Positions 25,409-63,651 of a DNA stretch of 64,000 nucleotides are shown here, piece by piece. The translations under genes and the position numbers were made by a program. Positions within the stretch are counted from its first letter, which is position 1; every line of letters starts with the position of its first letter. Source of the stretch: Escherichia coli (GTDB lineage: Bacteria > Pseudomonadota > Gammaproteobacteria > Enterobacterales > Enterobacteriaceae); the NCBI RefSeq assembly GCF_016903815.1, contig NZ_CP069973.1; one strand, written 5' to 3'. Under the pieces are notes generated by a model, which searched no databases, was not told the origin of the DNA, and saw only the letters and a program-made list of their open reading frames with translations.

Positions 25409-25483
25409 TGGCTGGGGTACGAGGATTCGAACCTCGGAATGCCGGAATCAGAATCCGGTGCCTTACCGCTTGGCGATACCCCA
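25409..25483 (-). tRNA. glnX: tRNA-Gln (anticodon CUG)
   Basis: 75-nt cloverleaf ending in CCA; anticodon loop ttCTGat read from the reverse complement. Confidence 0.9.
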
Positions 25484-25520
25484 ACTGGGTGCACTTACGA
25501 TGTAAGCGTCTTGAATAAAT

Positions 25521-25595
25521 TGGCTGGGGTACGAGGATTCGAACCTCGGAATGCCGGAATCAGAATCCGGTGCCTTACCGCTTGGCGATACCCCA
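25521..25595 (-). tRNA. glnV: tRNA-Gln (anticodon CUG)
   Basis: Identical copy of the preceding tRNA-Gln(CUG). Confidence 0.9.
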
Positions 25596-25643
25596 ACAAA
25601 TTGGTTTTTGAATTTGCCGAACATATTCGACACATTCAGAATT

Positions 25644-25720
25644 TGGTGGCTACGACGGGATTCGAACCTGTGACCCCATCATTATGAGTGATGTGCTCTA
25701 ACCAACTGAGCTACGTAGCC
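25644..25720 (-). tRNA. metU: tRNA-Met elongator (anticodon CAU)
   Basis: 77 nt; anticodon loop ctCATaa; ends in CCA. Confidence 0.9.
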
Positions 25721-25735
25721 AGATTGTTTCTTCGA

Positions 25736-25810
25736 TGGCTGGGGTACCTGGATTCGAACCAGGGAATGCCGGTATCAAAAACCGGTGCCTTACCGCTTGG
25801 CGATACCCCA
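25736..25810 (-). tRNA. glnW: tRNA-Gln (anticodon UUG)
   Basis: 75 nt; anticodon loop ttTTGat. Confidence 0.9.
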
Positions 25811-25844
25811 ATAACCGGGCGGTGAACCGCTTACTCGAAGAAGA

Positions 25845-25919
25845 TGGCTGGGGTACCTGGATTCGAACCAGGGAATGCCGGTATCAAAAACCGGTGCCTT
25901 ACCGCTTGGCGATACCCCA
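25845..25919 (-). tRNA. glnU: tRNA-Gln (anticodon UUG)
   Basis: Identical copy of the preceding tRNA-Gln(UUG). Confidence 0.9.
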
Positions 25920-25942
25920 TCCGTACAACGCTTTCTGGTGAA

Positions 25943-26027
25943 TGGTGCGGGAGGCGAGACTTGAACTCGCACACCTTGCGGCGCCAGAACCTAAATCTGG
26001 TGCGTCTACCAATTTCGCCACTCCCGC
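25943..26027 (-). tRNA. leuW: tRNA-Leu (anticodon UAG), long variable arm
   Basis: 85 nt; anticodon loop ttTAGgt; ends in CCA. Confidence 0.9.
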
Positions 26028-26035
26028 AAAAAAGA

Positions 26036-26112
26036 TGGTGGCTACGACGGGATTCGAACCTGTGACCCCATCATTATGAGTGATGTGCTCTAACCAACTG
26101 AGCTACGTAGCC
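26036..26112 (-). tRNA. metT: tRNA-Met elongator (anticodon CAU)
   Basis: Identical to the metU copy. Confidence 0.9.
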
Positions 26113-34809: not shown

Positions 34810-35518
34810 GTGCACAGAAAACCCCCAGCTAGGCTGGGGGTTCCGGAAAGCTTTCAGCTTTAAGCCAGTTATTAAAACCCCTTTTGATTTGTTAAAACAC
34901 CTTGCGGTCTGGCAACTGCAAGTGTCAAACAAGAAATCAAAAGGGGGTCCCAATGGGGAACGAAAAGAGCTTAGCGCACACCCGATGGAACTGTAAATAT
35001 CACATAGTTTTTGCGCCAAAATACCGAAGACAGGTGTTCTACAGAGAGAAGCGTAGAGCAATAGGCAGTATTTTGAGAAAGCTGTGTGAGTGGAAAAGTG
35101 TACGGATTCTGGAAGCTGAATGCTGTGCAGATCATATCCATATGCTTGTGGAGATCCCGCCCAAAATGAGCGTATCCGGCTTTATGGGATATCTGAAAGG
35201 GAAAAGCAGTCTGATGCTTTACGAGCAGTTTGGTGATTTGAAATTCAAATACAGGAACAGGGAGTTCTGGTGCAGAGGGTACTACGTCGATACGGTGGGT
35301 AAGAACACGGCGAAGATACAGGATTACATAAAGCACCAGCTTGAAGAGGATAAAATGGGAGAGCAGTTATCGATTCCCTATCCGGGCAGCCCGTTTACGG
35401 GCCGTAAGTAACGAAGTTGGATGCAAATGTCAGATCGTGTGCGCCTGTTAGGGCGCGGCTGGTAAGAGAGCCTTATAGGCGCATTTGAAAAACCTCCGGC
35501 TATGCCGGAGGATATTTA
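34808..35518 (+). mobile_element. IS200-family insertion sequence (IS200/IS605 family); boundaries approximate (about ±15 bp)
   Basis: Contains an IS200-type tnpA; left-end hairpin aaaaccccc-agctaggct-gggggtt (34817..34842) and right-end hairpin cctccggc-tatg-ccggagg (35493..35511); length about 710 bp fits IS200; flanked by the nagE terminator and the glnS promoter. Confidence 0.8.
34953..35411 (+). CDS. tnpA: IS200 transposase TnpA (HuH Y1 transposase, 152 aa from MGNEKSLAHTRWNCKYHIVF)
   Basis: HuH motif (HIHMLVEIPP) and catalytic-Tyr region (GYYVDTVG); near-identical to IS200 TnpA as recalled; the track ORF starts 17 codons upstream. Confidence 0.88.
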   Translation: MGNEKSLAHTRWNCKYHIVFAPKYRRQVFYREKRRAIGSILRKLCEWKSVRILEAECCADHIHMLVEIPPKMSVSGFMGYLKGKSSLMLYEQFGDLKFKYRNREFWCRGYYVDTVGKNTAKIQDYIKHQLEEDKMGEQLSIPYPGSPFTGRK

Positions 35519-56556: not shown

Positions 56557-56645
56557 CAGAACGCCTCCGCATTGATCAGGGCATAAACCAGATAACCCAG
56601 TAATAAAAACACCAGCAACACGCCGGCTATCACGTCTGCACTCAC
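56556..56645 (-). CDS. kdpF: KdpF small subunit (29 aa; [29 protein letters not shown]), GTG start, stop overlapping the kdpA ATG
   Basis: Manual minus-strand translation; single hydrophobic helix; TGATG overlap with kdpA. Confidence 0.7.
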
Positions 56646-57223: not shown

Positions 57224-57410
57224 GTCGGGAAGACGTTCAGGTAAGTATTTATACATCGCATTACCCAACCGAAATATATATTCATGAAATATATATAAAT
57301 ATTTTCCTAATTGTTCTTATCTGACAGATATCTCACTTAAGGCTTTCTTATAAATCTGTAGGGTTTCGCCTGTCAGCAGACAAATAACCCGATAAAACAA
57401 GGATGAGCAG

Positions 57411-60400
57411 ATGAGTGGAAAACCGGCGGCGCGTCAGGGCGACATGACGCAGTATGGCGGTAGCATTGTCCAGGGTTCAGCCGGGGTGCGCATCGGTGCC
57501 CCCACCGGCGTGGCCTGTTCGGTGTGCCCCGGCGGGGTGACGTCCGGCCATCCGGTCAATCCGCTGCTCGGCGCGAAGGTCCTTCCCGGAGAAACCGACC
57601 TTGCCCTGCCCGGCCCGCTGCCGTTCATCCTCTCCCGCACCTACAGCAGTTACCGGACAAAAACGCCCGCGCCGGTGGGGAGCCTCGGCCCCGGCTGGAA
57701 AATGCCTGCGGATATCCGCTTACAGCTGCGCGATAACACACTGATACTCAGTGATAACGGCGGCAGAAGCCTGTATTTTGAGCACCTGTTTCCCGGTGAG
57801 GACGGTTACAGCCGCAGCGAGTCACTCTGGCTGGTGCGCGGCGGTGTCCTGAAACTGGATGAAGGTCACCGGCTGGCCGCACTCTGGCAGGCGCTGCCGG
57901 AAGAACTCCGCTTAAGTCCGCATCGTTATCTGGCGACGAACAGTCCGCAGGGGCCGTGGTGGGTACTCGGCTGGTGTGAGCGGGTGCCGGAGGCGGATGA
58001 GGTGCTGCCTGCGCCGCTGCCGCCGTACCGGGTACTGACCGGGCTGGTGGACCGCTTCGGGCGCACACAGACGTTCCACCGTGAGGCTGGCGGCGAAATC
58101 ACCGGCGTGACGGATGGTGCCGGGCGTCACTTCCGGCTGGTACTGACCACGCAGGCGCAGCGGGCAGAAGAAGCCCGGCAGCAGGCCTCTTCCGGCGGGA
58201 CGGAACCGTCCGCTTTTCCTGATACCCTGCCGGGTTACACCGAATATGGCCGGGACAACGGCATCCGTCTGTCTGCCGTGTGGCTGACGCACGACCCGGA
58301 ATACCCGGAGAATTTACCTGCCGCGCCGCTGGTGCGCTATGGCTGGACGCCACGCGGCGAACTGGCGGCGGTGTATGACCGCAGCAATACACAGGTGCGC
58401 AGCTTTACTTACGATGATAAATACCGGGGCCGGATGGTGGCGCACCGTCACACGGGCCGGCCGGAAATCCGTTACCGTTACGACAGCGACGGGCGGGTGA
58501 CAGAACAGCTAAACCCGGCAGGCTTAAGCTACACGTATCAGTATGAGAAAGACCGCATCACCATCACCGACAGTATGGACCGCCGTGAAGTGCTGCACAC
58601 GCAGGGCGAAGGCGGGCTGAAGCGGGTGGTGAAAAAGGAACACGCGGACGGCAGCGTCACGCAGAGTCAGTTTGATGCGGTGGGCAGGCTTAAGGCACAG
58701 ACGGATGCCGCAGGCCGGACGACTGAGTACAGCCCGGATGTGGTGACGGGACTCATCACGCGCATCACCACACCGGATGGCAGGGCATCGGCATTTTACT
58801 ATAACCACCACAACCAGTTAACGTCAGCCACCGGGCCTGACGGGCTGGAAATACGCCGGGAATATGATGAATCCGGCCGTCTGATTCAGGAAACCGCACA
58901 CAACGGCGATATCACCCGCTACCGTTATGATAATCCACACAGTGACTTACCCTGCGCAACGGAAGATGCCACCGGCAGCCGGAAAACCATGACATGGAGC
59001 CGTTACGGTCAGTTGCTGACCGTCACTGACTGTTCCGGTTATGTAACCCGTTATGACCATGACCGTTTTGGTCAGGTGACGGCGGTGCACCGCGAGGAAG
59101 GGCTGAGTCAGTACCGCGCATACGACAGCCGTGGACAGTTAATTGCGGTGAAAGACACGCAGGGCCATGAAACGCGGTATGAATACAACGCCGCCGGTGA
59201 CCTGACCGCCGTCATTGCCCCGGACGGCAGCAGAAACGGGACACAGTACGATGCGTGGGGAAAGGCCATCCGTACCACACAGGGCGGTCTGACGCGCAGT
59301 ATGGAATACGATGCTGCCGGACGGGTCATCCGCCTGACCAGTGAAAACGGCAGCCACACCACCTTCCGTTACGATGTACTCGACCGGCTGATACAGGAAA
59401 CCGGCTTTGACGGCCGCACACAGCGTTATCACCACGACCTGACCGGCAAACTTATCCGCAGCGAGGATGAGGGGCTGGTCACCCACTGGCACTATGACGA
59501 AGCAGACCGCATCACACAGCGAACGGTGAATGGTGAAACCGCAGAACAGTGGCGGTACGACGAACGCGGCTGGCTGACACAAATCAGCCATCTCAGCGAA
59601 GGCCACCGGGTGACGGTGCATTACGGGTATGATGAGAAAGGCCGCCTGACCGGTGAGCGCCAGACGGTGCATCACCCGCAGACGGAAGCACTGCTCTGGC
59701 AGCATGAAACCAGACACGCTTACAACGCGCAGGGACTGGCGAACCGCTGTATACCGGACAGCCTGCCCGCCGTGGAATGGCTGACTTACGGCAGCGGCTG
59801 GCTGGCAGGCATGAAACTCGGCGACACACCGCTGGTGGATTTCACCCGCGACCGCCTGCACCGGGAAACGCTGCGCAGCTTCGGCCGTTATGAACTCACC
59901 ACCGCTTATACCTCTGCCGGGCAGTTACAGAGCCAGCACCTGAACAGCCTGCAGTATGACCGCGATTACACCTGGAACGACAACGGCGAACTCATCCGCA
60001 TCAGCAGCCCGCGCCAGACCCGGAGTTACAGCTACAGCGACACCGGCAGGCTGACCGGCGTCCACACCACGGCAGCGAACCTTGATATCCGCATCCCGTA
60101 TGCCACGGACCCGGCGGGCAACCGCCTGCCCGACCCGGAGCTGCACCCGGACAGCCCCCTCAGCGCATGGCCGGATAACCGTATCGCCCGTGACGCGCAC
60201 TATCTTTACCGGTATGACCGTCACGGCAGGCTGACGGAGAAAACCGACCTCATCCCGGAAGGGGTTATCCGCACGGATGATGAGCGGACTCACCGGTACC
60301 ATTACGACAGCCGGCACCGGCTGGTGCACTACACGCGGACACAATATGCAGAGCCGCTGGTCGAAAGTCGCTATCTTTACGACCTGCTGGGCCGCAGGGT

Positions 60401-61550
60401 GGCAAAACGGGTATGGCGGCGTGAACGGGACCTGACGGGCTGGATGTCGCTGTCATGGAAACCGGAAGTGCCCTGGTACGGCTGGGACGGCGACCGGCTG
60501 ACCACAATACAGAACGACAGAACCCGCATCCAGACGGTTTATCAGCCGGGGAGCTTCACGCCACTCATCAGAGTTGAAACTGCCACCGGTGAGCTGGCGA
60601 AAACGCAGCGCCGCAGCCTGGCGGATGCGCTTCAGCAGTCCGGCGGTGAAGACGGTGGCAGTGTGGTGTTCCCGCCGGTGCTGGTGCAGATGCTCGACCG
60701 GCTGGAAAGTGAAATCCTGGCTGACCGGGTGAGTGAGGAAAGCCGCCGCTGGCTGGCATCGTGCGGCCTGACGGTGGAGCAGATACAAAACCAGATGGAC
60801 CCGGTGTACACGCCGGCGCGAAAAATCCACCTGTACCACTGCGACCATCGCGGCCTGCCGCTGGCGCTTGTCAGCACGGAAGGGGCAACAGAATGGTGCG
60901 CAGAATACGATGAATGGGGCAACCTGCTGAATGAAGAGAACCCGCATCAGCTGCAGCAGCTCATCCGCCTGCCGGGTCAGCAGTATGATGAGGAGTCCGG
61001 CCTGTATTACAACCGCCACCGCTATTATGACCCGCTGAAGGGGCGGTATATCACTCAGGATCCGATTGGACTGAAGGGGGGATGGAATTTTTATCAGTAT
61101 CCGTTAAATCCGATCTCAGAGATAGACCCACAAGGGTTAAATCCGTTAATTCTTAGTGTTGTAGCACTGATGAGTTGCGGTTTGTTTTCATCAGGTGGTG
61201 TTATCCAAAGTGGGCAACAACGCAGAGATCAATATGGCCGTAAAGTTAATCCAGAAGCCGACAAATTAACAGATGAACATAAGTCAGGTGTAAATCCTGG
61301 TGGTAACTGTAGTCCCCAGAACCTGAGTGACTTACAAAATGAAAAAAACAGATTATGTAACCAGTCTAGAGCTTGCGCTCCTCAGATGCTGAGAAAAGAA
61401 ATATTGAGACGGTACGAGATAAATTTGGCGTGCGCTTCGGTCAGAAAGCAGATTAATAATCAGTGCTTTGGTGGTGGAGATAAGGCCCATATGGAAGAAG
61501 AGAATAAAGCATATAAAACAGCAGCTGATTGCAGTGGCTTAATAAAATGA
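57411..61550 (+). CDS. rhsC: PAAR-domain RHS-repeat polymorphic toxin (RhsC-type, 1379 aa) with a variable low-GC C-terminal toxin tip
   Basis: N-terminal PAAR-like segment ([11 protein letters not shown]...), many YD/RHS repeats ([27 protein letters not shown] and others), core-end motif PxxxxDPxGL (DPIGLKGG...EIDPQGL) at about 61080–61140, then an AT-rich Cys-rich tip of roughly 135 aa. Confidence 0.9.
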
Positions 61551-62050
61551 AAAAAATAATTTTCTCTAACGAGAGTGCAGTCTATGATGAACTTATGATT
61601 CATTTCCCATGCCAGCCATTACCTCATATTTCAAATGATATTACAGGGCTGGAGGAACTGGATATTGTATATAATTTTTTCCAAAAGAAACAATGGAATG
61701 AAATAGCCAACAATTTTAAAATAAAGGATGACTCTTATGCTTTAGAGTTAGGAATTACATTCCTCCCTGAGAAAGTATTCTGCTATTACATCCCTCTGTA
61801 TATTTATGCCTCGTTGTTTAATAAGAATGATTTTTGGGTTTTTGAATCCGATTTTATTCAACAATATTTATGTCCTGAGTATCGGGATCACGATGATTTT
61901 TTGAATTTTGTTTTTAATTTTTCAGATATACAACTATCTATTATTGCACAGTTTATGTCTTATGAATCAGACGCTGGATTCTTTTATGCAAGTAAAGCTT
62001 GTATGGATTTTTGGGAAGATTATTCACCTCTATTACATAAGAAAATTTAA
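61547..62050 (+). CDS. Putative cognate immunity protein for the RhsC C-terminal toxin (167 aa from [10 protein letters not shown]); no family I recognise
   Basis: Start overlaps the rhsC stop (ATGA); strongly AT-rich like the toxin tip; position is canonical for Rhs immunity genes; the track ORF starts 6 codons upstream. Confidence 0.6.
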
Positions 62051-62102: not shown

Positions 62103-62720
62103 ATGAAAAATAAGATGACGTTGGCATATAGATCACTGCGAATAATCCACCTCTACCACTGCGACTATCGCGGCCTGCCGCTGACGCTTATCAGCCCTGA
62201 CGGGGCAACAGAATGGTGCGCAGAATATGATGAATGGGGCAACCTGCTGACTGAAGAGAACCCGCAGCACCTGCAGCAGCTTATCCGTCTGCCGGGGCAG
62301 CAGTATGATGAGGAGTCCGGCCTGTATTACAACCGCCACCGCTATTATGACCCGCTGCAGGGGCGGTGTATCACTCAGGATCCGATTGGGCTGGAAGGCG
62401 GGTGGAATCAGTATGTATATGCTTCCATACATCCAACCTATTCTATTGATCCGCTGGGCTTAATTGATAAACCTGCTCCAGTATTCAATCGAGAACTAAA
62501 TTCAGATGCGTATTATCTTGCCGTAAATAATTGCTATTCATATGCTCTAAATAGGTATGGAAATCCTGGGAGTAGGATTTTTGGCGGCGGAGGATTACAA
62601 CCTGGAGAATTATCTGGAAAAGAGTTTTCTAAACTCACTTGTAGTAGTATTTTTGAAGCGTCAAAAAATGATGGTGCCAAGGACAGGGAAAGATCATCAG
62701 AAGTACACTTTTTGTACTAA
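62103..62720 (+). CDS. Orphan Rhs C-terminal module: conserved core end ([10 protein letters not shown]...DPIGLEGG...DPLGL) plus a distinct short toxin tip of about 85 aa; possibly truncated or pseudogenic
   Basis: About 90% nucleotide identity to the rhsC core end over roughly 260 bp, followed by unrelated AT-rich sequence; lacks the Rhs N-terminus. Confidence 0.65.
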
Positions 62721-62827: not shown

Positions 62828-63651
62828 ATGGAACTTAAAAAATTGATGGAACATATTTCTATTATCCCCGATTACAGACAAGCCTGGAAAGTGGAACATA
62901 AATTGTCGGATATTCTACTGTTGACTATTTGTGCCGTTATTTCTGGTGCAGAAGGCTGGGAAGATATAGAGGATTTTGGGGAAACACATCTCGATTTTTT
63001 GAAGCAATATGGTGATTTTGAAAATGGTATTCCTGTTCACGATACCATTGCCAGAGTTGTATCCTGTATCAGTCCTGCAAAATTTCACGAGTGCTTTATT
63101 AACTGGATGCGTGACTGCCATTCTTCAGATGATAAAGGCGTCATTGCAATTGATGGAAAAACGCTCCGGCACTCTTATGACTAGAGTCGCCGCAGGGGAG
63201 CGATTCATGTCATTAGTTCGTTCTCAACAATGCACAGTCTGGTCATCGGACAGATCAGGACGGATGAGAAATCCAATGAAATTACAGCTATCCCTGAACT
63301 TCTTAACATGTTGGATATTAAAGGAAAAATTATCACAACTGATGCGATGGGTTGCCAGAAAGATATCGCAGAGAAGATACAAAAACAGGGCGGTGATTAT
63401 TTATTCGCTGTAAAAGGAAACCAGGGGCGGCTAAATAAAGCCTTTGAGGAAAAGTTTCCGCTGAAAGAATTAAATAATCCAGAGCATGGCAGTTACGCAA
63501 TGAGTGAAAAGAGTCACGGCAGAGAAGAAATCCGTCTTCACATTGTTTGCGATGTCCCTGATGAACTTATTGATTTCACGTTTGAATGGAAAGGGCAGCC
63601 ATGGACAGAAACTACCTGACGTCAGTCCTTGCGGGGAGCGGGCTTTCGTAA
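62828..63651 (+). pseudogene. H-repeat-associated (ISAs1-family) transposase remnant with an in-frame TAG and an internal deletion
   Basis: Two track ORFs (62828..63184, 63230..63619) lie in the same frame, separated by TAG at 63182; recalled intact homologs have Lys there. The body ends at ...[11 protein letters not shown] and the conserved C-terminal peptide [16 protein letters not shown] reappears out of frame at 63601..63651. Confidence 0.75.

Follow-up and report, generated by a model that had tools for sequence, protein, structure and literature searches.

A single PAAR-like unit at the N terminus of Escherichia coli RhsC and its probable delivery by a type VI secretion system encoded elsewhere in the genome

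Several described Rhs systems resemble the RhsC protein analyzed here. Tse5 of Pseudomonas aeruginosa (RhsP1, PA2684; PDB code 8CP6) possesses, like RhsC, a 47-residue N-terminal segment in front of a plug that starts with Pro-48-Val-Asn-Pro. This 47-amino acid fragment is PAAR-like and required for secretion (PMC10684867; PMC9637101), lacks a P-A-A-R signature (PMC9637101), and belongs to a protein that depends on VgrG1c (PMC4067218). The Tse5 chain is cut at Lys-47|Pro-48, with residues 30–47 anchored within the shell, and its counterpart of DUF6531 was named the N-terminal plug (PMC10684867); residues 1–29 are disordered in the cryo-EM map. In canonical PAAR and PAAR-Rhs proteins (V. cholerae VCA0105, PDB code 4JIV; E. 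coli c1882, 4JIW; P. protegens RhsA, 7Q97), the last PAAR unit corresponds to RhsC residues 2–29. E. coli also harbors "neighbourless" proteins (Rhs-Nb) related to T6SS2-Rhs (Ma et al. 2017, as summarized in PMC6730261), and RhsC, judged by its sequence, probably belongs to the same class. The main rhs product of S. enterica, SPI-6 Rhs, has the same short N terminus and DUF6531 start as RhsC, whereas its gene lies inside a T6SS cluster, downstream of tssBC-hcp-vgrG.

The window, i.e. the complete 64-kb stretch of E. coli DNA analyzed, is colinear base for base with positions 699796–763795 of NZ_CP023820.1 (E. coli strain 7/2). The two differ by 58 mismatches in 64000 bases, 57 of which fall in the rhs core, at 58793–60925. 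The annotated gene order of the colinear 7/2 stretch is lipB...kdpFABCDE, ybfA, RHS core, immunity, rhs fragment, ISAs1, and ybgA, and the site of rhsC is the classical ybfA-rhsC locus of E. coli. According to the open reading frame list and the translation, rhsC (57411..61550, + strand) runs from an ATG at 57411 to a stop codon at 61548–61550 and encodes an RHS element core protein of 1379 amino acids with a C-terminal toxin. A longer N terminus is excluded by an in-frame TAA at 57393–57395, six codons 5′ of the ATG. The NCBIfam profile NF041261 (RHS_core) matches RhsC over its full length with 2606 bits, above the equivalog cut-off of 2000 bits, residues 1–1243 covering profile positions 1–1261. 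In agreement with the label "RHS element core protein" in the annotation of colinear genomes, RhsC contains YD/RHS repeats, an Rhs-associated core ending in DPxGL, and a variable tip.

Downstream lies a putative cognate immunity gene (61547..62050, + strand; 167 amino acids), whose start overlaps the stop codon of rhsC in the sequence ATGA; the two genes are translationally coupled. Its product is annotated in the colinear genome as hypothetical protein WP_000720081.1 and shows a weak match to Pfam DUF6714 (23.8 bits, under the cut-off of 27). It is followed by an orphan rhs fragment (62136..62720, + strand) that combines an RHS core motif (PF03527, 46.3 bits) with an alternative toxin tip and is missing its N terminus; colinear genomes label it an incomplete RHS repeat-associated core domain protein. 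An ISAs1 (H-repeat, ybfD) transposase pseudogene (62828..63595, + strand), annotated in the colinear 7/2 and EC2257 records, ends the Rhs element. The locus order kdpF-ybfA-rhsC-immunity-orphan fragment-H-repeat is the same in K-12, whose RhsC (b0700; RhsA–D subfamily) is identical to the window protein over the first 63 residues and 87–99% identical per 100-column block over the core. Differences are found in the tip, which in K-12 is an unrelated 150-amino acid sequence, and in the immunity gene (ybfB in K-12).

Based on the alignment with Tse5, the linker (residues 30–47; 57498..57551, + strand) is predicted to thread into the shell and to end at a cleavage site, His-47|Pro-48. A PDB search placed Pro-48 opposite the first residue of 8CP6_B, the shell chain of Tse5, and the DUF6531 plug of Tse5 aligns with RhsC from residue 48 (E value 8e-10); by analogy, the N-terminal chain of RhsC may be cut at this position. 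DUF6531, the N-terminal plug of the cage, comprises residues 46–123 (57546..57779, + strand; PF20148, 66.7 bits) and precedes the RHS/YD-repeat shell (57780..61058, + strand), which is matched by PF05593 in 11 stretches (235.7 bits) and by TIGR01643; PF03527 was also matched in RhsC. The core/toxin boundary is marked by the aspartyl-protease autocleavage motif DPIGL-x17-DPQGL (residues 1217–1243; 61059..61139, + strand; regular expression DPxGx18DPxG), at which TIGR03696 (residues 1166–1243) also ends. The autocleavage role of the DPxG motif is known from PMC10684867. The polymorphic C-terminal toxin (residues 1244–1379; 61140..61547, + strand) contains an Ntox16 domain (residues 1297–1376; 61299–61538) that matches PF15523 with 44.2 bits (cut-off 25). 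The delivery-related parts of RhsC, namely the N-terminal unit, the plug, and the autoprotease motif, are thus intact in sequence. In contrast to rhsC, the Tse5 gene adjoins its vgrG, and the Tse5 tip is pore-forming.

The PAAR likeness of the RhsC N terminus is weak in each match but consistent. Residues 2–29 (57414..57497, + strand) constitute a single PAAR-like unit that corresponds to unit 3, the final one, of a PAAR domain and represents the putative VgrG-docking element. Pfam PF05488 matches residues 2–20 with profile positions 51–69 of 70 (17.2 bits; cut-off 27 bits), and NCBIfam NF033420 matches residues 2–29 with profile positions 68–94 of 94 (15.6 bits; cut-off 124 bits), both below threshold. 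A PDB search with residues 1–47 yielded four matches (9RCE_c, 4JIV, 4JIW, and 8GRA), all PAAR proteins that align via their last repeat (E value 9e-4 for 9RCE_c), and no sequence match to the N-terminal fragment of Tse5. Residues 1–145 align with residues 55–203 of a PAAR-Rhs protein from a Burkholderiaceae MAG (54% identity, E value 4e-50) that carries a complete, three-unit PAAR (PAAR_motif, 63.6 bits). Met-1 of RhsC falls opposite residue 55 of this protein, and the RhsC unit is colinear with its unit 3.

RhsC and the last unit of canonical PAAR proteins have the motifs P-A-A-R-x-G-D (P5-A6-A7-R8-Q-G-D11 in RhsC) and GxIxxGSxxVxIG in common, whereas units 1 and 2 (∼55 residues) are absent from RhsC and the His position is occupied by Tyr (by Lys, Thr, Val, or Ile in relatives). 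Instead of three consecutive PAAR units, RhsC has one, with the plug starting from residue 46. Judged by these alignments, RhsC starts with just one PAAR unit, enough for a third of a cone, rather than with a PAAR domain. The PAAR-type spike-tip domain named in a first-pass annotation of this DNA is therefore real as a resemblance but reduced to one unit that scores below the family cut-offs. A unit of 28 residues is unable to build the PAAR cone alone, which counts against reading RhsC as a T6SS effector. N termini of the RhsC type are conserved in Salmonella, Citrobacter, Enterobacter, Yokenella, Trabulsiella, Serratia, and some Burkholderiales, and Rhs paralogs with unlike cores and toxins have this N terminus in common. 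A protein-database search with residues 1–130 revealed no longer N termini, nearly all matches being short fragments of the same family.

The prePAAR effectors classified by Ahmad et al. in 2020 reportedly combine the motif AARxxDxxxH with transmembrane segments, a PAAR domain, and a nearby DUF1795 Eag gene. We rejected a prePAAR assignment for RhsC: Tyr replaces the His of the motif, no transmembrane region or PAAR domain follows, and there is no Eag gene, by which RhsC also differs from canonical PAAR-Rhs proteins with their prePAAR-TMD region and Eag chaperone. In the window annotation, no DUF1795 gene was found, and the gene 5′ of rhsC is ybfA.

As the first-pass annotation had stated, the window is devoid of T6SS genes; neither tss nor hcp nor vgrG is annotated in the colinear 7/2 stretch. 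Its reasoning that a PAAR-like N terminus implies T6SS delivery by a machine encoded elsewhere also holds. The genome search that it proposed for tss, vgrG, and hcp, carried out in strain 7/2, uncovered all 13 core tss genes and two vgrG-rhs pairs. A complete T6SS cluster is located at aspV, ∼490 kb from the rhsC region. It comprises hcp, vasL, tssM, tssA, vasI, an AAA ATPase at the ClpV position, tssL, tssK, tssJ, tagH, tssG, tssF, tssE, tssC, tssB, hcp, and vgrG, and none of these genes is flagged as a pseudogene in the annotation. A paralogous RHS core gene starts 76 bp behind the aspV vgrG. No standalone or split PAAR was found in the cluster when we checked the small ORF that separates tssB from tssC, three hypothetical proteins, and the VgrG C terminus. 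The second vgrG is located at yncH and is followed after 66 bp by an RHS core gene; the encoded Rhs protein is identical to RhsC in 43 of the 47 N-terminal residues and differs within residues 1–40 only by S18P. The two VgrGs are 92% identical overall, being identical up to about residue 519 and divergent from there through the C-terminal tip. The rhsD locus of 7/2 is neighbourless. The search of this genome also listed a third vgrG-like place. The aspV T6SS locus is present in all 12 genomes listed with 100% identity to window positions 1–25000, one of which (FDAARGOS_1279) has an IS3 transposase annotated inside the tssB-tssC match. The choice that the first-pass annotation had left between a T6SS elsewhere in the genome and another route thus resolves toward the former in this lineage.

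The N termini of short Rhs proteins vary together with the tips of neighboring VgrGs. A scan across genera identified ten short-N-terminus Rhs genes 50–169 bp 3′ of a vgrG. QYGG-type N termini pair with K[IV]HLQGKEQ tips (E. coli and Pseudocitrobacter), RKGLD-type N termini with HIHLEGESD tips (E. coli and E. albertii), and other variants with AINLQG[MV]QT tips (Trabulsiella, C. amalonaticus, and locus L097), a covariation drawn from few and phylogenetically non-independent lineages. The vgrG(QGKEQ)-rhs(QYGG) junction occurs in 2704 of 5426 complete E. coli genomes. "YGG"-type homologs in S. salamae, Citrobacter, and Enterobacter have housekeeping neighbors and no vgrG, and an ancestral vgrG linkage is not demonstrable there.

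We consider RhsC to be, probably, a neighbourless T6SS Rhs effector that is most likely carried by the yncH-type VgrG, since the short Rhs N terminus varies with the VgrG tip across genera, and fired by the aspV machine. The exposed residues 1–29 would dock on the C-terminal tip of the VgrG trimer, most likely that of the yncH locus (tip ...KIHLQGKEQVNGDSLL...), as suggested indirectly by the vgrG adjacency of paralogs and by the covariation. Residues 30–47 would remain threaded inside the shell, possibly after a cut as in Tse5, and the loaded spike would be launched by the only T6SS, that at aspV. Cleavage at DPQGL in the target cell would free the Ntox16 tip, and sibling cells would be protected by the gene downstream of rhsC. 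Strains devoid of a T6SS, such as K-12, would keep rhsC with T6SS delivery being impossible. Two reports count against this proposal: for EHEC, the identity and even the existence of a VgrG carrier for the rhsA/B/C clade was called unclear (PMC7216683), and the corresponding T6SS of EHEC is repressed in vitro according to the abstract of PMC13141884.

Because the Rhs N terminus amounts to one third of a cone and the aspV cluster has no standalone PAAR, the enterobacterial N terminus might conceivably cap VgrG in an undescribed way, an idea that we regard as speculative and rather improbable. Either three Rhs N termini could assemble into a trimeric cone, or a single unit could sit on one VgrG edge, with the C-terminal tails of VgrG (INWNCG...PDMRQF) completing the tip. 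Specificity would then reside in Rhs residues 13–18 and 27, read against the last ∼40 residues of VgrG.

The incompleteness of the unit, at one third of a PAAR and below every cut-off, and the lack of conservation at the metal-binding His position would also fit an effector whose PAAR-like unit is vestigial and that is loaded via the shell or plug surface, an adaptor, or a PAAR protein encoded elsewhere; our check for a standalone PAAR covered the T6SS cluster, and an A. dhakensis Rhs needs both its N and C terminus for VgrG binding (PMC8636562). We consider a vestigial unit unlikely, as residues 1–40 are strongly conserved across genera and covary with the VgrG tip, the same N terminus is found on paralogs with different cores and toxins, and the equivalent Tse5 fragment is necessary for secretion (PMC10684867).

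RhsC might instead not be deployed between cells at all and serve as a silent recombination reservoir or act like a toxin-antitoxin system in its producer, independently of a T6SS. K-12 retains an intact rhsC, yet its aspV site lacks the cluster found in the window lineage and contains only yafT-ykfM-yafU′-yafF′-yafV. More broadly, rhs DNA is nearly universal in E. coli (5425 of 5426 genomes), whereas only 2278 genomes (42%) have tssBC of this type, so that many rhs carriers are without this T6SS. The rhs core is a mosaic, which points to frequent gene conversion, and in macrophages the rhs elements of Salmonella reportedly act as type II TA modules (abstract of PMC7043789). Against these observations stand the T6SS and matching vgrG genes of this lineage, the intact N-terminal unit, plug, and autoprotease motif, and T6SS2-dependent Rhs killing in E. 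coli, for which PMC6730261 states that killing by Rhs-CT3 requires ClpV2, so that a lack of deployment appears quite unlikely here. Export by another route, for instance via Sec, as proposed for Gram-positive WapA, or by a Tc-toxin-like complex, is very improbable. It would account for a 64-kb window without T6SS genes, and Rhs/YD proteins of other phyla use other routes (PMC3967940), but the translated N terminus is polar and has no hydrophobic signal-peptide core, no TcA/TcB-like or two-partner genes are annotated near rhsC in the colinear stretch, and close paralogs lie directly behind vgrG.

Orphan or neighbourless PAAR-Rhs effectors are an already documented class, so that the finding is real but ordinary, and the first-pass annotation overstated the novelty of the delivery puzzle, such proteins of E. 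coli being in the literature (PMC7216683; PMC6730261, summarizing Ma et al. 2017). Compared with Rhs-Nb as described, our analysis adds the one-unit PAAR motif, whose variant matches that of the yncH-locus vgrG partner. The PAAR of orphan PAAR-Rhs proteins would thus be a single unit, and its variants appear to track those of the VgrG tip. RhsC becomes assignable to the yncH-type VgrG in a testable manner, a pairing that the EHEC study had called unclear (PMC7216683). Because the window lineage encodes both the secretion machine and a spike that matches RhsC, deployment of the toxin is plausible there, whereas it is not in T6SS-less strains such as K-12.

The rhsC gene of the window (57411–61550, plus strand) translates into a protein of 1379 amino acids. 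We set its start at the N-terminal methionine because of an upstream in-frame TAA (57393–57395, six codons 5′ of the ATG) and an AAGGA box; in other genera, the homologs likewise begin at the equivalent of RhsC Met-1. RhsC scores 2606 bits against the 2000-bit cut-off of NCBIfam NF041261 ("RHS element core protein"), and Pfam places DUF6531 (residues 46–123), 11 RHS repeats, an RHS core (1139–1175), and Ntox16 (1297–1376) on it; an autoprotease motif, DPIGL-x17-DPQGL, spans residues 1217–1243. The presumed immunity gene, a 167-residue ORF (61547–62050), overlaps the rhsC stop codon as ATGA, and its product matches DUF6714 below threshold (23.8 bits versus 27). On its 3′ side lie an orphan rhs fragment (62136–62720), which combines an RHS core motif with another toxin tip, of unassigned family, and an ISAs1 pseudogene (62828–63595); no immunity ORF was obvious between these two. 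The locus has the kdpF-ybfA-rhsC order of E. coli, and the sequence is a classical rhsC element that differs in its toxin tip, a form found in at least 281 complete genomes.

The resemblance of RhsC to PAAR proteins is confined to residues 2–29 and always concerns the C-terminal third of the domain. RhsC matches positions 51–69 of 70 in Pfam PAAR (17.2 bits, cut-off 27), positions 68–94 of 94 in NF033420 (15.6 bits, cut-off 124), and, as the only PDB hits, four entries that are all PAAR proteins (9RCE_c, 71–98 of 99; 4JIV, 67–93 of 93; 4JIW; and 8GRA). The histidine of the AARxxDxxxH motif is a tyrosine in RhsC and variable among relatives. The N-terminal DNA pattern with which the genome collection was scanned also returned full PAAR proteins starting with MSGKPAAR.

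Two Rhs proteins of the Burkholderiaceae MAG JAIRRE01 (loci L053 and L054), recovered by the same scan, carry three tandem PAAR units (PAARxxDxxxYGGxIxxGSxxxLxNG). These units are regular, ∼28 residues each with a YGG motif, and lead directly into an RhsC-type linker and the plug (...NPVNP..GAKVL). The three-unit Rhs clears the Pfam PAAR cut-off (63.6 bits), and its residues 55–203 align with RhsC 1–145 at 54% identity (E = 4e-50); RhsC therefore begins at the equivalent of unit 3 of a complete PAAR-Rhs. Judged by sequence, what RhsC carries at its N terminus is one PAAR-like unit rather than a PAAR domain. The PAAR-type N terminus proposed by the first-pass annotation thus holds for one unit at residues 2–29 and fails for a full domain, given the scores below both cut-offs. 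The three-unit form could be the long-form source of the one-unit enterobacterial N terminus. One-unit N termini also occur in Rhs proteins of Paracidovorax, Acidovorax, and Comamonas (loci L039, L045, L067–L069, L073–L075, L110, and L120), so the short form is not limited to Enterobacterales; no vgrG was found within up to 3.5 kb upstream of these genes.

By alignment, RhsC and Pseudomonas aeruginosa Tse5 share a common layout around residue 48. Pro-48 of RhsC is matched to residue 1 of the shell chain of Tse5 (8CP6_B, E = 8e-10). Tse5 is cleaved at K47|P48, its residues 30–47 are anchored inside the shell, residues 1–29 are disordered, and its 5-kDa N-terminal fragment has been described as PAAR-like and as required for secretion (PMC10684867; PMC9637101). 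Delivery of Tse5 requires VgrG1c (PMC4067218). By analogy, we infer that RhsC may be cleaved and docked as Tse5 is. The Rhs of Salmonella SPI-6 shares the short N terminus of RhsC, and its gene sits inside a T6SS cluster.

Over its full length, the window is colinear with the genome of E. coli strain 7/2 (NZ_CP023820.1, 699796–763795), and the alignment contains no indel. Of 58 mismatches in total, 57 cluster at 58793–60925 (∼2.1 kb) in the rhs repeat shell. Such clustering is typical of gene conversion between rhs paralogs, although an artefact of assembling repeats could also produce it; the remaining 62 kb contain a single mismatch, at 56635. The annotated gene order of the 7/2 stretch (lipB...leuS...nag...glnS...fur...pgm...speF-potE...kdpFABCDE-ybfA-rhs) includes no tss, hcp, or vgrG gene, which bears out the earlier statement that the window is free of T6SS genes. 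By colinearity, the same annotation places in the window a seven-tRNA cluster (Gln, Met, Leu) at 25409–26112 and an IS200C transposase gene between nagE and glnS at 34953–35411.

A T6SS encoded elsewhere, the source of delivery for which the first-pass annotation had suggested a search, was indeed found in near-identical genomes. At the aspV tRNA (∼242.7–270.9 kb, ∼490 kb from rhsC), strain 7/2 carries a complete cluster that comprises hcp, vasL, tssM, tssA, vasI, an AAA ATPase at the ClpV position, tssL, tssK, tssJ, tagH, tssG, tssF, tssE, tssC, tssB, hcp, and vgrG. The cluster carries no pseudogene flags, and no standalone PAAR was detected within it; an RHS core gene lies 76 bp downstream of its vgrG, followed by its own immunity gene. 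The aspV locus is present in 12/12 listed genomes with 100% identity to window positions 1–25000. In one of these, FDAARGOS_1279 (NZ_CP069957.1, 2182380–2185978), the tssB-tssC match is broken in two and covers an annotated IS3 family transposase, and T6SS status may thus differ within this otherwise near-clonal lineage. Across 5426 complete E. coli genomes, rhs core DNA occurs in 5425, vgrG-like DNA in 3657, and tssBC of the aspV type in 2278. A small conserved ORF lies between tssB and tssC (74 residues in 7/2, L003 47004–47228; 70 residues in Salmonella, L002 420–632). The E. coli ORF weakly resembles the VipB N terminus (17.1 bits) and may be an in-frame piece lying 5′ of tssC or reflect a wrongly placed tssC start.

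A second vgrG of strain 7/2 resides at the yncH (rhsE) locus, with an RHS core gene 66 bp downstream whose product differs from RhsC at one of the first 40 positions; the neighborless rhsD-locus protein has an N terminus identical to that of the yncH-locus Rhs. The two VgrGs (L005 1188–3329 and L014 9630–11738; 92% identity) are identical as far as about residue 519 and diverge from there to their C-terminal tips (HIHLEGESDVNGDAPV... versus KIHLQGKEQVNGDSLL...), which at the sequence level suggests that the 3′ end of vgrG is exchanged as a cassette along with the start of the rhs gene behind it. Loci of other species show Rhs N-terminal and VgrG tip variants changing together: QYGG with K[IV]HLQGKEQ (E. 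coli, Pseudocitrobacter), RKGLD with HIHLEGESD (E. coli, E. albertii), and other variants (TGG/IGG) with AINLQG[MV]QT (Trabulsiella, C. amalonaticus, and locus L097). In C. amalonaticus, a single N terminus is common to one vgrG-linked Rhs copy and at least two neighborless copies. The vgrG(QGKEQ)-rhs(QYGG) junction is found in 2704/5426 E. coli genomes; in K-12 derivatives, only its rhs half is matched. Tip tracking, the C. amalonaticus copies, and the junction counts support one VgrG probably serving several interchangeable Rhs paralogs, RhsC included, in a sample that is small and phylogenetically non-independent.

We therefore favor, with good though not full confidence, RhsC as an orphan T6SS effector: its PAAR-like unit would dock on a VgrG encoded outside the rhsC locus, probably that at yncH, and the aspV T6SS would fire the loaded spike. 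A review that summarizes Ma et al. 2017 (PMC6730261) describes "neighborless" Rhs-CTs (Rhs-Nb) as relatives of the Rhs encoded in the T6SS2 cluster of E. coli, and reports that killing by Rhs-CT3 is ClpV2-dependent. Export of RhsC by a route other than the T6SS appears very improbable. An in silico study of EHEC found no gene of the rhsA/B/C clade near vgrG and called the carrier unclear (PMC7216683). That the PAAR-like motif is vestigial, with loading through another surface or an adaptor, seems unlikely to us. The first 63 residues are common to RhsC of K-12 and of the window, despite the T6SS-free aspV site of K-12 MG1655 (yafT-ykfM-yafU′-yafF′-yafV). That rhsC is not deployed, or acts inside the cell like a toxin–antitoxin module, is quite unlikely.

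A PAAR-like N terminus in a T6SS-free window is thus real, but a known situation. For RhsC as an orphan effector, the sole unusual point is structural, namely the proposed capping of a VgrG trimer by one third of a PAAR cone.
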